Numbered from the stretch's first letter, positions 13,791 to 28,607 are shown. The stretch is 37,502 nt of DNA from a virus (IMGVR_UViG_3300001487_000052:1-37502); one strand, 5' to 3'. Notes: generated by a model not told the origin, from the sequence alone. A program made the numbers and translations.

Positions 13791-14710
13791 TCCTTCTCTT
13801 TATTTTTGTTCTCCGAAATCATCTTTACGAGAGAACCATATTTTGCAATTAATTCATCCTTAGCCTCATCTCCCCACATAGTATGAACGAGAACCCCATG
13901 TTTGTGTAAGGAGATTATAAATGGATCTTCAGGGCGGACACGAATTCTCACGCTCTCTATCTTATTTATCATCTCTTTTTCAGGGGCCGCTATGAAGAAA
14001 TCATTACTGAGTTCCCCACTTCCACGATATTGTTTAGTAGTAATGTCTCCATGATTCCAATACTCCGGAAAGTATGCGTTAAATAAATCTCTACCTTGCC
14101 AGATATAATTAGCATTTTCGAAACATTGCTCAGGAGATATATTTCTAGCTATAAACGGGAATCTATGAATAAACTCAAATGCTGGGGTCTTTTTTATCGC
14201 CCTCGCATCCTCTCTTCCGTCTCGATTAAGAGAAATCCCCTGTATTTTCCAATAGTGCACAGAATAGTCAATAATATCTTTATGTACCAGGTTTTTCCTA
14301 GTTTCCAAAAGGATATTAATACTATTCTCTGGGATAGTACCTGTAAAATCCCTAAGATAACCTACAACAAGATTATATTTCACCAAGAGCTCTAAGAACC
14401 GAGGATAACTTATGAAAATTATATTATCCCCGAAGACCTCTATAGCCTTTGTGAGAAACCTTAGGGCCTCGATGTTAAAAGCTCTCTGTTTCTTAGTCTC
14501 CTGTTCCGCCTTAAAAATCCCTTCTATCATCTTTGCATTTGTCGTATTAACCAGGCCGAGTTGTTGTAGCGCCTCTAGCTCTGTACCCGCATTAGGAGGA
14601 ATTATAATGGACTGGAGATCACTTTCAAGTTCCTGCGCATAACTTAAACCGGCCTTAGATATCGACGTATGAATAACTTTAGCCGAAATACTTTTTGTAA
14701 TTCCAAACAT
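13787..14710 (-). CDS. Hypothetical phage protein
   Basis: 307-aa ORF with its own CCTTATA promoter; C-terminal DPFI..GVLVHTMWGDEA block. Confidence 0.75.
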   Translation of the reverse strand: MFGITKSISAKVIHTSISKAGLSYAQELESDLQSIIIPPNAGTELEALQQLGLVNTTNAKMIEGIFKAEQETKKQRAFNIEALRFLTKAIEVFGDNIIFISYPRFLELLVKYNLVVGYLRDFTGTIPENSINILLETRKNLVHKDIIDYSVHYWKIQGISLNRDGREDARAIKKTPAFEFIHRFPFIARNISPEQCFENANYIWQGRDLFNAYFPEYWNHGDITTKQYRGSGELSNDFFIAAPEKEMINKIESVRIRVRPEDPFIISLHKHGVLVHTMWGDEAKDELIAKYGSLVKMISENKNKEKD

Positions 14711-21337: not shown

Positions 21338-21490
21338 AATAAGGACTTGAAAAAAGTAGCGACCAGTAAAAATATGCGTTTTTGAGTCATTTTTTCCGTT
21401 TTTAGCCTTTTCTGACCTCTTAAATTACCCCCAAAAACCTCAGCGACCACTTTTTTTGCAGTTTTTGATATGAAATCCTTATATATGTAG
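21338..21490. promoter_or_regulatory. Divergent control region: minus-strand CCTTATT, two AGCGACCA boxes, plus-strand TTTTGATATGAAATCCTTATATATGTA
   Basis: Boxes at 21358 and 21442, CCTTATA at 21477-21483; near-identical architecture to 612-744. Confidence 0.6.
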
Positions 21491-21559
21491 AGAGGAATGC
21501 TTTACTTTATTTTTTGCACTGGACTCTCTATTAACATAAACTTTTAAACGCAGGAAAAT

Positions 21560-23594: not shown

Positions 23595-23702
23595 ATGGAC
23601 GACGAAAGAATAAAAGAGAAGACTTTTACGGAAGGTGTAGAAGATTCTCAAGAAGTGTTTAAAGAGGAGAACAATTTTGATCCTCTTAAGATTAGACTAT
23701 AA
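23595..23702 (+). CDS. 35-aa acidic micro-ORF with KTFT motif (not in the track)
   Basis: MDDERIKEKTFTEGVEDSQEVFKEENNFDPLKIRL; fills the intergenic gap with an A-rich leader. Confidence 0.45.
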   Translation: MDDERIKEKTFTEGVEDSQEVFKEENNFDPLKIRL

Positions 23703-23729
23703 CAAACCAAAAGAAAGGAATAAACTACT

Positions 23730-24362
23730 ATGATTAATGGTAAAGAATTCGCTGAGAAAATGTTTAGCGATGTAAATAATGATAATACCCAGGAAAAGCT
23801 CTACAGTACTGGCTCTGAGGAACTGGATGCTATGTTAGAAAAGGCTTTTAGTGAGGGTTATGAAGCTGCCCAGAAAGAGTTTGCTAAGAAAGATGAGGGC
23901 AAACATACTGGTGCTAAAGTAGCTGGTGCCGCCGCTCTCGGTGCTGGTGCTGGTATCTATGGTGCTGAGAAACTTGGAAAAGGTGTTTCTAAGCTTGGTG
24001 CTAAAAAGATTGAAGGCGCTGCTGGTAAGAAAGCTATGGCTGCTATGGAAGGCGCTAGAAATGGTAAGGCTGCTCAGAAAGAACTCAGAGAAAAAGCCGA
24101 GAAGATGGAGAAGGCCGGTGAGAAAATGATTAAGACTGGTAATAAGATGCAGGAGCCCATGAAAGTAGTTCGTAATGCAAAGAAACAGGCCGTAGAAGCT
24201 GCTGAAAAGGGTAAAGGTGCTGTAGTTGAAACTGCTAATAAAGGTAAGAAGGCTGTTGTAGAAGCTGCCGGAAATACAAAGAAAGCTGTAGTTGAGACTG
24301 CTAAGAAGGCTATGAACAACAAAACTGTTAAGAGAGTTGTTAAGAAAGTAGTTAAGAAATAA
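23730..24362 (+). CDS. Putative internal head protein: acidic leader plus Lys/Ala-rich body
   Basis: KEFA, KMFS, KLYS, KAFS and KEFA in the first 52 aa; 11-aa repeats AVVE(T/A)A..K.K. Confidence 0.65.
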   Translation: MINGKEFAEKMFSDVNNDNTQEKLYSTGSEELDAMLEKAFSEGYEAAQKEFAKKDEGKHTGAKVAGAAALGAGAGIYGAEKLGKGVSKLGAKKIEGAAGKKAMAAMEGARNGKAAQKELREKAEKMEKAGEKMIKTGNKMQEPMKVVRNAKKQAVEAAEKGKGAVVETANKGKKAVVEAAGNTKKAVVETAKKAMNNKTVKRVVKKVVKK

Positions 24363-24451
24363 GTAATATGTCATTAATAAACCAGAAGTGACCTTAGAGT
24401 CTACCCTTTAATGTGGGCTTCTGGTTCTAAAAGATGTCTTAATATATCATA

Positions 24452-24494
24452 AGCCAGGACATTTAAAGATGTGAGATTCGATTCTACCCTGGCT
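24452..24494 (+). ncRNA. tRNA-like mini-element, copy 1 (7-bp stem, hairpin, T-loop arm), followed by a hairpin
   Basis: AGCCAGG/CCTGGCT; ACAT-TTAAAG-ATGT; AGA-TTCGAT-TCT; downstream AAAGCAC/GTGCTTT. Confidence 0.5.
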
Positions 24495-24554
24495 CTAAAT
24501 TAAAAGCACGAGAAAGAGTTGTGCTTTAAGAAAATTATAAATAATTAATTAAAT

Positions 24555-25391
24555 ATGATTATTGTTAGAAATACTACGTCTTTTTCTTATCCTGAAAACT
24601 ATATTATACTAGAGAAGGACTTTAGTATTTTGTCAAAAATCAGAGGTAAGTTGGCACATAAGATTACTACTTCCATAGTAAATGATATTAATATAATACC
24701 AGATTTAGTAGAGAATATAAGAACCCCAAAAAGAATTAAATTGGGAAAATCAGTAAGAACTGGATTATATAAAGCGGCTAAGAAGTCTGGAGCTAGAATA
24801 TCACCAATTAATGTTGGGGGTCCTGTTACAGTATCTAAAGATTTAGCACCGAATATATTAAGTTCAGCAAGAAGATATCCCAACTCTAGGAGAATTCTTA
24901 GAAAGTATCAAAAACGTGCACTAGAGAATAATGTTGGAAAATATCAAATAGTTCTAGGTCCTAGACCAAGTGGAGAGGCAGTAGCACATGAAATTGGACA
25001 CGTAATTAATCAAGAATCAAAGAATCCAATAGTCCGAAGAATATCTAGAATATCTGCAAACCCAGAAGTAAGGAAAAGACATGATATTGGATATGATTTA
25101 GTAGCAGGAGAAAATAATCCTGGAAATCATGGAAGGTCTGGTATAAAAAATCTGGTTAGGGATTTTATAGATAGCAAATCAATACTTTCAGATGAAAAAA
25201 GAGCGTCTAGGAATGGTATTAAACTATTAAAAAATCTTGGAGCTGATAAAGAAACTATTGCAGCTTCTAAAGCTAATATGGACACGGCTCAAGAAATATA
25301 TAGACGTAAAGGTAATGTAAATTGGAAGACTACTCTGAGAAACACAATCCAAACGAAAGATAAGCGAACTGGGGATATATTCTATGACTAA
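24555..25391 (+). CDS. Basic protein with zincin (HExxH) metallopeptidase motif
   Basis: AVAHEIGH plus downstream DEKRASRNG (candidate third zinc ligand); N-terminal TSFS and KDFS motifs. Confidence 0.6.
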   Translation: MIIVRNTTSFSYPENYIILEKDFSILSKIRGKLAHKITTSIVNDINIIPDLVENIRTPKRIKLGKSVRTGLYKAAKKSGARISPINVGGPVTVSKDLAPNILSSARRYPNSRRILRKYQKRALENNVGKYQIVLGPRPSGEAVAHEIGHVINQESKNPIVRRISRISANPEVRKRHDIGYDLVAGENNPGNHGRSGIKNLVRDFIDSKSILSDEKRASRNGIKLLKNLGADKETIAASKANMDTAQEIYRRKGNVNWKTTLRNTIQTKDKRTGDIFYD

Positions 25392-25851
25392 TGCTCTCTG
25401 CTTCGCATATAAAATAAAAAATCCTGCTCCAAGTTATTATGGGTTTGGAATCAATATAATAAATCAAGGATATGAAGTTTCTTTAATCGCTTATTTTCCT
25501 TCATTCCTTGGACTAAAACAGAAAACAATAAATAACAAGTGGAGAATTAAAGGAGAACCAAAGGAGGGTTATGTTCCAGTTTATATAGGTGATAAAGGTT
25601 GTATTATCACCCCTAATCACACACTTACTAGATACACAATAAGAAAAATAGAGCAAGTTTTATATAATGCTCTTAGTGATATTGTGGAAATTAAGTGTGA
25701 AAAGTCGGGGTGGTTTAAAAGGAAATACATAATCACCTACAATAACAAGACAATAATAAAAGAACAATATGGAAAATTAAATAAACATGAGATACTAAAA
25801 GAAATAATAAAAACAGACTTTTCAGAGTATTTCAGCGGTTTATTAGTCTAG
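25384..25851 (+). CDS. Hypothetical protein
   Basis: 155-aa ORF overlapping the upstream stop codon. Confidence 0.65.
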   Translation: MTNALCFAYKIKNPAPSYYGFGINIINQGYEVSLIAYFPSFLGLKQKTINNKWRIKGEPKEGYVPVYIGDKGCIITPNHTLTRYTIRKIEQVLYNALSDIVEIKCEKSGWFKRKYIITYNNKTIIKEQYGKLNKHEILKEIIKTDFSEYFSGLLV

Positions 25852-25893
25852 CCTGTACATTTTAAGATGTAGAATTCAATTTCAATACAGGCT
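25850..25893 (+). ncRNA. tRNA-like mini-element, copy 2
   Basis: AGCCTGT/ACAGGCT; ACAT-TTTAAG-ATGT; GAA-TTCAAT-TTC; compensatory changes relative to copy 1. Confidence 0.5.
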
Positions 25894-26016
25894 CTAAATT
25901 AAAAAGCACGAAACTCATTACAATAATTAGGGGGTGTATAATACTGCGCAACTTAAAAACATCCCCTATATATATTTTAACATTAACAACTGAGTTTCGC
26001 GAGCTAGTATATTGTA

Positions 26017-27276
26017 ATGAGCCTATTAACAGAAAGATTATTAAATGCACAATACCATAACCACGAAGAAGATTGTTGTTGTGGTGAAGAATGTTGCTGT
26101 CATGATCACGAAGAAAAAGAAATTGAACAGCAGCTTAGTGAGGAAGAAATAGAGAAGATAATTGAGGAGAAGTATAGTGAAAAGGATGAGAAGACGAAGG
26201 AGTTTATAAGAAAAGGCCTAAGAAAGTTTGGAGATAGATTTGATTATAGTAAGTCAATATATACTGGTTATTCAGGAGAGGCTATACTTATTTGTTTAAA
26301 ACACAGCTGTGAGTTCAGTAGGAAAGCCTCTCAATTGGTTCGTCCAAATTATTTAATGAATCCTTGTCCGGAGTGTGCTCATGAAGTTAGACACAAAATA
26401 ATGATACGACGAAACAAGGAGGGTATACCTAGAACTAATAGAACACTAGAATCTTTCCTAGTAGAATTAAAAGAACTAGGCTTAGAAGAAATATATGATC
26501 TATCCCACATAACTGACTATAAAAATGCCATTACTCCGGTTAAGATTATAAATAAGAGCTGTGGTCATGATTTTTATATATCTCCAAATAAATTGCTAGA
26601 AGGATATATAGATTGCCCTATCTGTGCTCATAAAAGGGGATCTAAGTCTAGGGGTATGGGCTTTGAGAGATTTAAAGAAAAAGCCATCTTAAAACACGGA
26701 CCTGATAGATATTTTTATGATTACGAAGAGAATAAGGATTTACTTAACAATCGACAGAAAGTAAAAATAAAATGTAATAAATGCGGACATGTTTTTTGGC
26801 AAGAAGTTTCTTCTCACTTATCTGGAAAGGGCTGCCCTAAGTGTTGTTTCTCAAAGGGGGAAGAAATAGTGGATGCTTATCTTAAGGAAAAAGAAATATT
26901 AATATTAGATAAAACCCCGATCTATGATGTTTCTTCAGTTAGAACATATATTATTCCTGACTTTAGAATTATGTTAGATAACCAAGAGATTTGGATAGAG
27001 TATAATGGGATTCAACATTATAAAGTATCTCTTAATTTTGGAGATAAAAAATCCTCCGCTCAAACTTTTCTTAGTCAGTATACTAGAGATAATGATGAAA
27101 GAGATTACTGTAGTAGAAATGGTATTATTCTAATTGAAATTCCATATACAATAAGTAAGAGGGAAGATATTTATGACTTCTTGGACAAAGTACTGTTCGA
27201 AAAAATAGATCAAAATAGTTTAGTAGACTATAAATCATTGTTTGTATTCCCAAAGGATGAAAACAATAGTACATAA
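26017..27276 (+). mobile_element. Free-standing homing endonuclease-like gene (DUF723-type Zn-finger repeats plus PD-(D/E)xK nuclease)
   Basis: Three repeats of the type EFI.K...FGDRFDYS...C..H....CPEC / CPIC / HLSGKGCPKC; C-terminal IPDF..IWIEYNGIQHY. Confidence 0.75.
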
Positions 27277-27299: not shown

Positions 27300-28607
27300 G
27301 TGATTAACCTTAAAATGAATAATAATAGAATGAAATGTTTGTTAAAAATCTTGAATCTTAATGCTCCAGCATCAGACGGGTCCACAGTTCCTTATGATGT
27401 TTTGCAGTCATATATAGATTCAGAAGAATGTAAGAAAGCGTTGCGCGATAAAACGATGGTATCTTCTTTTACTCATCGTTGTCGAAATATTCAGTCCGTA
27501 TTTCCTGATAAGCCTGCACTTTTAAAGACTGTAGGCCGTGACGACGTATTTGGCATAGTAGATGAAGAGGCACCTACAATAACCCACTATATCACTAAAC
27601 TTGAAATCAAATCAGATGGATGGTTATATGGAGTTTGCGAAATTTTAGAGGAGGATGGATTAGATGATGTATCAATTCAAAACCTCCGGAGACTAAAGGG
27701 GTTGATTAAAAATGGAATAAAGATCGGTTGCTCGTGCATTATCTTGGGGAATTGGAAAACGCAGGGTAAGGGAACCGATACTCTAGTAAAACTTGTCCAA
27801 TTTAAGGGTGTTGACTTTACATTTAACGCGAGCTGGAAAAATGCCTGCTTAGTTGAAGCTTGGGAAGAGGATGAAGACGGAGAAAGAATTAAAACTTACT
27901 CTGAGAATACAGAAGATGTAGATAATAATAAACTTAAAGTAAAAACATTCTCTGATCTTTCTGGATTTGATTATAGTGGTCCCAAATCTTCTAAAATTAA
28001 TGGACAGTATACAATTCTTAAAGCTAAACAATTTTCTAGCATTGGAACCATAGAAACAGTTGAAGGTGATATTCCTGAAGTAAAGGAAACAGAGAAGACC
28101 TTTACTCAGCCTGAAACTAAAGAAGAAACACCAGAACAGAAAAACTTTACTGTAGCTGGTATTCGTGATCAGCTTAGAGAAAGAAAACTTGGCGTACGAT
28201 TAATGTTTAGACGAATGATTCTCTCATACAAACAAGTAGTTAAGTCTATGGGATCTAATATGAAACCAGAAGATGAGGCTATTTTGAAAAGTATGTTGAG
28301 TAGTGATGTTCTTTATGTTCTTAATAAAATTTCTGATGATGTTATTACTAAGAACAAACAAATCAACACCCTACTTGGAGCTAGTAGCATCTCAAAGAAC
28401 CTTCGTCTCGCTAGCCAGGAGTTACAGATGGTTTATAGAATGGCAGGTATTGAAGCCAGAAAGCAAGGATTTGTCTCGAAAATTAGATATCAACGTCTTT
28501 CTACTGCCTATAGTAAGTTTGTAGGTGCAGTGTTGGATGAGGTCTTTAAGAACACTGATAATATGCCTAAAGAAGAAGACGATAAAATAGAGGAGGAGGG
28601 AAAGTAA
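27300..28607 (+). CDS. Prohead (capsid maturation) protease with C-terminal extension
   Basis: ASDG, FTH, ITHYITKL, IGCSCIILG and GVDF correspond to T4 gp21/herpes-type serine protease blocks; position between portal and scaffold. The start may be an internal Met. Confidence 0.7.
   Translation: MINLKMNNNRMKCLLKILNLNAPASDGSTVPYDVLQSYIDSEECKKALRDKTMVSSFTHRCRNIQSVFPDKPALLKTVGRDDVFGIVDEEAPTITHYITKLEIKSDGWLYGVCEILEEDGLDDVSIQNLRRLKGLIKNGIKIGCSCIILGNWKTQGKGTDTLVKLVQFKGVDFTFNASWKNACLVEAWEEDEDGERIKTYSENTEDVDNNKLKVKTFSDLSGFDYSGPKSSKINGQYTILKAKQFSSIGTIETVEGDIPEVKETEKTFTQPETKEETPEQKNFTVAGIRDQLRERKLGVRLMFRRMILSYKQVVKSMGSNMKPEDEAILKSMLSSDVLYVLNKISDDVITKNKQINTLLGASSISKNLRLASQELQMVYRMAGIEARKQGFVSKIRYQRLSTAYSKFVGAVLDEVFKNTDNMPKEEDDKIEEEGK

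Follow-up and report, generated by a model that had tools for sequence, protein, structure and literature searches.

A short recurrent RNA fold that imitates the top half of a tRNA lies between head genes of uncultivated huge phages

What are the short, tRNA-like sequences that stand on either side of a two-gene cassette among the head genes of a huge phage? An earlier note on this DNA had pointed to two such copies, and had suggested that they are tRNA mimics and that, as direct repeats, they could mediate gain or loss of the cassette. The window analysed (37,502 nucleotides) makes up the opening 37.5 kb of a record of 101.5 kb in IMG/VR, from an uncultivated huge phage; the record has a G+C content of 35%, a CheckV completeness of 27% and one tRNA gene, for His. 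A blastn search with positions 23700-26100 found no match among deposited phage genomes; the relatives used for comparison are designated by L numbers. Our analysis indicates that both repeats are genuine members of a hitherto undescribed family of folded RNAs, 45-55 bases long, whose shape mimics the upper half of a tRNA.

The earlier note had described two copies with the same fold and different sequence, and their coordinates, sequence and fold are all as claimed (Table 1). Folded alone, each has the same three-way junction as its minimum-energy structure, made up of a 7-bp closing stem (P1), a 5-bp stem with a 4-nt loop (P2), one unpaired purine, a 3-bp stem (P3) and two or three unpaired bases. 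The strands are AGCCAGG/CCUGGCU (P1), ACAUU-UAAA-GAUGU (P2) and AGA-UUCGAU-UCU (P3) in element 1, and AGCCUGU/ACAGGCU, ACAUU-UUAA-GAUGU and GAA-UUCAAU-UUC in element 2. Folding energies are -13.6 and -10.6 kcal/mol, respectively, with z -3.1 in both cases, and at most one of 200 shuffles (0-1) folds as well. Two compensatory pairs had been noticed in the closing stem; both are there, and the small hairpin P3 supplies two more. The copies also have an 18-nt tail in common, CTAAATTAAAA(A)GCACGA, and a degenerate pattern for the element is expected to match the window by chance only 0.15 times. The bracketing arrangement likewise holds, with two open reading frames between the copies. The TAG stop of the second overlaps the first two bases of element 2, and an A/U-rich leader runs from the hairpin behind element 1, which does not pass a terminator-like scan, to the ATG of the first. 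Three things came to light beyond the earlier note: a third copy, a fourth copy outside the window, and an HNH gene right after copy 2.

Table 1. Features of the locus; positions are those of the window except in the last line
Feature	Position	Strand	Basis
Upstream gene, small Gly/Ala/Lys-rich head 'cargo' protein	23730-24362	+	ORF list
Element 0, degenerate third copy	24380-24427	+	Covariance model R2, filters off
Element 1 (copy 1)	24452-24494	+	Fold and covariance model R2
Element 1 trailer CUAAAUUAAAAG and hairpin AAAGCAC...GUGCUUU (24503-24527)	24495-24527	+	Fold of 24440-24535
Cassette gene 1, 278 aa, AHEIGH (HExxH) motif	24555-25391	+	Translation
Cassette gene 2, 155 aa	25384-25851	+	ORF list
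Element 2 (copy 2)	25850-25893	+	Fold and covariance model R2
Element 2 trailer CUAAAUUAAAAAGCACGA and conserved structured leader of the HNH gene	25894-26016	+	Five-relative alignment, consensus fold
Free-standing HNH/treble-clef homing-endonuclease gene	26017-27276	+	phrog_559, 8.3e-49; PF14311, 1.9e-08
First gene of the conserved head block	27300-28607	+	Slot table
Fourth copy, outside the window, between two co-directional genes	55538-55586 of the genome		Covariance model

Elements 1 and 2 score 69.9 and 65 bits with covariance model R2. The degenerate element 0, which lies 24 nt upstream of element 1, reaches 19.9 bits (E 0.0093, filters off); its closing stem has 9 bp, its UUUAAU loop is carried by an imperfect CCC/G(U)GGG stem, and CUAAAA comes next. 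It shares 94.6% identity with L025:4989-5044, and its orthologue in that relative (L025:4990-5057) is recovered by the covariance model at E 2.9e-07. Element 1 is 100% identical over 47 nt to L025:5942-5988, between flanks that are unrelated, and element 2 has orthologues at L025:6823-6866 and L028:467-510. Two other structural ideas were tried and dropped. A pseudoknot of UUCGAU or the P2 loop with the trailer, sought by eye, is not general, since an AUCGAA trailer is found only in L025 copy 1; and the conserved cores of hammerhead and other self-cleaving ribozymes are absent, with no Rfam match.

How widespread is this fold? A covariance-model search of relatives, as the earlier note had advised, uncovered many further copies and covariation in homologues. 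The first model, built from three copies (copies 1 and 2 and the single copy of L004, a relative 91-97% identical to the window), was searched against the loci of portal-gene relatives and picked up copies with different stems. A second model, from 16 copies, produced 41 matches across the loci of 20 relatives; 40 lie on the coding strand. Additional copies were found in L025, L028, L055, L074, L076, L084 and L085. The total comes to more than 45 copies, spread over about 25 contigs of related huge phages, and almost every copy has the coding-strand orientation. In the 41-match alignment pairing is kept in 95.1% of cells, 14 of the 15 pairs show changes on both sides, with two to six pair types per pair, and the covariation score reaches 0.94, where shuffles give 0.24 and slid partners 0.06-0.12; these figures are generous, the alignment having been fitted to the model and many of the sequences being related. 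The first P2 pair is always R-U (20 G-U, 19 A-U), which can pair only on the coding strand, so that the structure must be a feature of the RNA. A model-free descriptor scan of about 400 kb agrees in direction, with 19 sense hits and one antisense.

Members of the family are 43-55 nt long, with a closing stem of 7-9 bp (7 bp in most copies) and a P2 hairpin whose loop varies from 4 to more than 10 nt and has no conserved sequence. The UUCRAU loop, a 13-nt spacing described below and a C-U-A-A trailer are fixed while the stems vary freely. The junction is the minimum-energy fold in only about 19 of 43 unique copies. Rfam 15 has no model for the family and we found no published description of it; in the window no Rfam family reaches its gathering score, and at E values up to 10 nothing tRNA-like appears on 24400-25960. 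Exact-pattern scans of IMG/VR were sparing: one pattern gave a single chance match inside a coding region of a giant-virus contig, another matched L004 only, and CTACTCTTCGATGAG yielded one true new copy (L055) among 17 other contigs.

Are the elements tRNA mimics? The earlier note had stated that they have no D arm and are not normal tRNAs, which agrees with the failure of ARAGORN and Rfam to find a tRNA. ARAGORN finds no tRNA gene in the window, and neither it nor the Rfam tRNA model detects a cloverleaf. (ARAGORN's loose mitochondrial mode called 2322 'genes' and was uninformative.) No nucleotides separate P1 from P2, leaving neither a D arm nor a 7-nt anticodon loop. It also counts against mimicry that the T-like arm has 3 pairs and a 6-nt UUCRAU loop throughout, where a tRNA has 5 and 7, and that there is no D-loop with which to form the elbow. 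What the elements do have is a 7-bp acceptor-like stem, a discriminator and a T-loop-like sequence 13 nt before a position 74 equivalent. The distance from this loop to a C is exactly 13 nt in about 33 of the 45 copies; in about 8, which include copy 1, it is 12 nt. The 13-nt distance holds however it is split among P3, linker, P1 and discriminator. In 38 of the 45 copies the C belongs to CUAA. The element fails every formal test for a tRNA, but its reading as a tRNA mimic gains from the sense-strand covariation, from the distance between loop and C74, and from the true tRNAs that occupy the same slots in related phages.

The true tRNA genes of these phages (those of L013, L038, L039, L008 and L006 were checked) have much in common with the elements. 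They share an acceptor-like stem of about 7 bp and UUCRA in the loop, and in 22 of 23 the same 13 nt (positions 61-73) lead up to C74. The genes do not encode CCA, and their trailers are CUA, CUU or CAA. This unusual, uniform C74-without-CCA trailer suggests one particular maturation route for the phage tRNAs. The elements differ from them in having no D arm or 7-nt anticodon loop, in their shortened T arm and in being missed by tRNA finders. The two types of sequence also share genomic slots. Two records, L009 and L013, are free of elements, and each has a true tRNA in an element slot: L009 has a tRNA-Asp (trailer G-CUAAG) between a small head gene and the homologue of the 27300 gene, and L013 a tRNA-Arg (trailer A-CUAG) just upstream of the portal gene. 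Elements fill these slots in L010, L014, L017, L020, L021 and L023. Where a relative lacks the HNH gene, the sequence directly upstream of the 27300 homologue is an element or a true tRNA (elements in L010, L020, L021, L023 and L014, the tRNA-Asp in L009). A sister group of 365-400 kb gut huge phages has true tRNAs, in the sense orientation, between its small head genes (L086 617-689 and 1046-1120, with the same arrangement in L089-L117). Its tRNA-Gln and tRNA-Pro begin 1 and 8 nt, respectively, after small head-gene stops, and the tRNA-Gln ends 30 nt before the next start.

The elements fill short spacers between head genes of uncultivated huge gut and rumen phages, typically beginning 2-46 nt after a stop codon and ending 17-36 nt before the next start, with an A/U-rich leader in between that has no Shine-Dalgarno sequence. 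The commonest upstream neighbour in relatives, next to 17 of about 40 elements, is a member of the paralogue family of the small cargo gene at 23730, whose product in the window has no Pfam or PHROG match. On the downstream side there is often the portal gene, the 27300 homologue, a gene of 620-630 aa or an HNH gene. Further downstream, the core genes (homologues of 28608, 29408 and 31671) are separated by gaps of 0-80 nt, mostly below 50, with no element between them. One relative is complete, at 353 kb; it has only three copies, all within 9 kb of the head module, and six tRNAs elsewhere, which argues against general operon punctuation. Regions upstream of elements are the ends of coding regions, and in a scan for promoter- and terminator-like sites none coincides with an element. 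An intrinsic terminator was likewise rejected, the CUAA trailer being followed by A-rich sequence with no U tract.

Some other features of these spacers are of note. The window has a 107-nt direct repeat (72% identity): one copy (697-803) immediately precedes the 806-2854 gene and the other (21442-21548) the portal gene, a position before the portal gene that is filled in other relatives by an element or a tRNA. Small head genes of relatives are also separated by another recurrent motif, a hairpin that contains 7-10 consecutive G (CCCTTT...ATAAAA...CATACAGGGGGGG), seen in L004 (about 415-460), L005 (about 14500-14560) and spacers of L011, L012 and L023. The 6.6-kb IMG/VR contig L017 starts 1 nt inside the closing stem of an element (1-50); this start is probably an assembly break at a repeat, and was not counted as an RNA end because assemblies break at repeats.

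What, then, do the elements do? We lean, with confidence only a little better than even, towards a cis-acting signal for mRNA punctuation or stability that is read by host RNase P/Z-type enzymes and serves secondarily as a substrate for recombination. The elements would be transcribed in sense within the polycistronic message of the head genes. Each could be regarded as a stripped-down tRNA in which P1 plays the acceptor stem, the variable hairpin replaces the D and anticodon arms, and the 3-bp arm with its T-loop-like UUCRAU is followed by a tRNA-style 3' trailer of discriminator, C and UAA. We infer that host tRNA-end-processing enzymes bind this structure like a pre-tRNA, the candidates being RNase Z or an equivalent at the 3' side and possibly RNase P at the 5' side. 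RNase Z is reported to recognise a substrate by its acceptor stem and T-arm, with neither D-arm nor anticodon loop required, and to cleave after the discriminator (PMC7479834). No RNase Z-like (Lactamase_B_2) gene was found in the three genomes searched (G000, G001 and G002), so the nuclease would have to come from the host. Relatives do encode a protein of the PolyA_pol/CCA-adding family, which may also be involved. Cutting would separate the message for the upstream small head-cargo protein from that of the downstream gene; one product would keep a folded cap, and the other would have a short A/U-rich leader free of structure. What the comparison shows directly is the fold with its covariation and strand specificity, the position between genes, the tRNA-like spacing and trailer, the slots shared with true tRNAs and the indel junctions inside elements; the cleavage, the enzymes and any effect on expression are deduced.

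Documented tRNA mimics that shape mRNA ends are the t-elements of plant mitochondria, whose ends have been mapped (Forner et al. 2007, PMC1920247). Like t-elements and the tRNAs of mitochondrial punctuation, the phage elements are non-canonical tRNA-like folds with a T-arm motif, set in longer transcripts at gene borders and interchangeable in position with true tRNAs; in mitochondria such structures direct RNase P/Z cuts that create mRNA ends. An acceptor-like stem plus a T-arm-like hairpin at an mRNA gene border is what we see here too, in sense spacers and with a covarying fold. The differences are that t-elements have mapped ends, a cloverleaf-like shape and the full T-arm GGTTCRANYCC (PMC1920247), whereas the phage element, in a bacteriophage setting, has no D arm and has a T stem of 3 bp with a loop of 6 nt; it carries only NNN-TTCRAT-NNN, the closest approach to the full motif being TGGTTCGATCCA in L021 and L020.

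Structured intergenic RNA that punctuates long phage transcripts and leaves protective 3' folds has another precedent in the RNase III hairpins of T7. Those sites between genes are long irregular duplexes with no tRNA features and no link to tRNA genes.

A plainer explanation, which we regard as unlikely but take seriously, is that the elements are generic mRNA stabilisers or insulators: the junction would block exonucleases or keep the A/U-rich start unpaired, no tRNA enzyme would take part, and the likeness to tRNA would reflect descent from tRNA genes. Plain hairpins do fill the same slots in other relatives, so that any stable fold may suffice. The elements fold far more stably than shuffles (-15.4 against -6.8 kcal/mol), and they end 17-36 nt before starts that have no Shine-Dalgarno sequence. 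A generic stabiliser leaves unexplained, however, why UUCRAU, the 13-nt ruler and the C-U-A-A trailer should stay fixed amid freely changing stems, and why true tRNAs should substitute for the element.

Alternatively, the element could be an operator for a phage RNA-binding protein that tunes head-gene translation, with the loop and CUAA as recognition sites. The confinement of copies to the head module in the complete relative would suit such a role, as would conserved single-stranded motifs that adjoin start regions, but no candidate RNA-binding protein was identified, and a specific operator should not readily be exchangeable for ordinary tRNAs of several identities (Asp, Arg, Gln, Pro). 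We consider an operator very unlikely.

Do the elements act as DNA rather than RNA? The earlier note's proposal that these direct repeats mediate cassette gain or loss is backed by three independent indels with junctions inside elements. L006 has genes of 112 and 154 aa between two elements where L005 has a single hybrid element, and the two alignments that define this indel overlap by 33 nt inside the element. The L025/L004 indel also ends in elements: L025 reads copy-1 type, 268-aa gene, copy-2 type, HNH gene, and L004 has a copy-1 body joined to the copy-2 downstream region, again a hybrid. In the third case elements 0 and 1, neighbours in the window, are separated by two genes in L025. The copy-1 type and the copy-2 type are both preserved in the window and L025 alike, indicating that the bracket is old and not a fresh target duplication.

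Under the punctuation reading recombination would be a by-product, because several similar copies close together offer homology by which genes between them could be added or deleted; the 24555-25851 cassette would be one such unit. A primary role at the DNA level, as a recombination or homing site (an HNH target or an attC-like folded site) that moves cassettes, strikes us as very doubtful. It would account for the three indels that end inside elements, for tandem 'empty' element pairs, which do exist, and for the HNH gene, which follows an element directly in the window and, in divergent versions in the same slot, in L004, L005, L006 and L025. On the other hand, most elements of distant relatives have no nearby HNH gene or cassette polymorphism, the invariant G-U/A-U pair and strict sense bias point to RNA, the cassettes contain no recombinase (Pfam, PHROG), and recombination between repeats needs no dedicated site.

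The same junctions invite comparison with the PeSL cassettes of T4-type phages, which consist of a sigma-70-like early promoter and a terminator stem-loop (Arbiol et al. 2010, PMC2839356). Both are short repeated regulatory motifs set between non-essential genes, which are added, removed or exchanged when one copy recombines with another; here the junctions of indels or replacements fall within the motif in L006/L005, L025/L004 and L025/window. The phage element differs in having no promoter and no U-tract, in forming a three-way junction with a T-loop and in belonging to the head (presumably late) module.

Could the element, once excised, be the end product, namely a stable small RNA resembling a mini-tRNA, possibly with a CCA tail, that works in trans, for instance by decoying tRNA-targeting host defences? 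Both of its borders resemble tRNA processing sites, relatives encode the CCA-adding family enzyme, and plant t-elements accumulate as small RNAs with a non-encoded C (PMC1920247). We nevertheless give this little credence, since the variable hairpin has no conserved loop to confer specificity, and the copies are few and keep to particular gene borders. Its most explicit form, in which host RNase P and RNase Z would excise the element and a phage nucleotidyltransferase complete its CCA, yielding free trans-acting mini-tRNAs of 45-55 nt that might serve during virion building as decoys for a host defence that cleaves or senses tRNA, is also quite improbable. Finally, that these are decaying tRNA pseudogenes with no present function, for which the tRNA resemblance and the true tRNAs in the same places might speak, is scarcely credible given compensatory changes in 14 of 15 pairs across genomes whose portal proteins share 58-87% identity with that of the window, a uniform truncated architecture and 100% identity of copy 1 in the window and L025 despite flanks that are unrelated.

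If tRNA-end enzymes do cut at these elements, huge gut and rumen phages would be using a mitochondrial type of 'tRNA punctuation' to split and stabilise their head messages, and would have evolved for it a minimal substrate of about 45 nt. Such a use would account for the many phage tRNA genes found within structural operons, would define the in vivo requirements of bacterial RNase P/Z and would supply a small, transferable part for processing or insulation. Exchangeable cassettes in a conserved head module are also bordered by the element, which marks their limits and so gives a handle on the shuffling of accessory virion proteins.

The genes of the cassette are themselves obscure. The 278-aa protein with its zincin-type AHEIGH motif, a cassette cargo inside the head module, has no match in Pfam, PHROG or PDB sequences. 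The 155-aa protein has weak matches only (PF25693, E 0.003; phrog_34902, E 2e-4) and just two homologue clusters, and its AF2 model (pLDDT 60) is too poor for a structure search. Its gene is the only one common to the cassettes of the window, L006 and L025. The N-terminal domain of about 110 aa is a separate upstream gene in L006 (15262-15597) and occurs as a fused tandem repeat in the 268-aa protein P0002. An IS200/IS605-type single-stranded DNA transposon was considered and rejected, the 155-aa protein having no HUH motif and no Y1_Tnp match.

The HNH gene is inserted between element 2 and the conserved head gene, and its leader is conserved (window 25909-26016; L004 1061-1159; L025 6880-6983). 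In this leader an outer stem, AACTCA/TGAGTT, encloses a nested inner stem, GGGGGTG/CATCCCC, and an invariant loop, GTGTATAATAYTGCGCAACTTAAAAA (in RNA form GUGUAUAAUAYUGCGCAACUUAAAAA). Among five relatives 7 of the 22 predicted pairs keep pairing through double changes. The leader could be a hairpin-held promoter or a regulatory RNA of the mobile gene.
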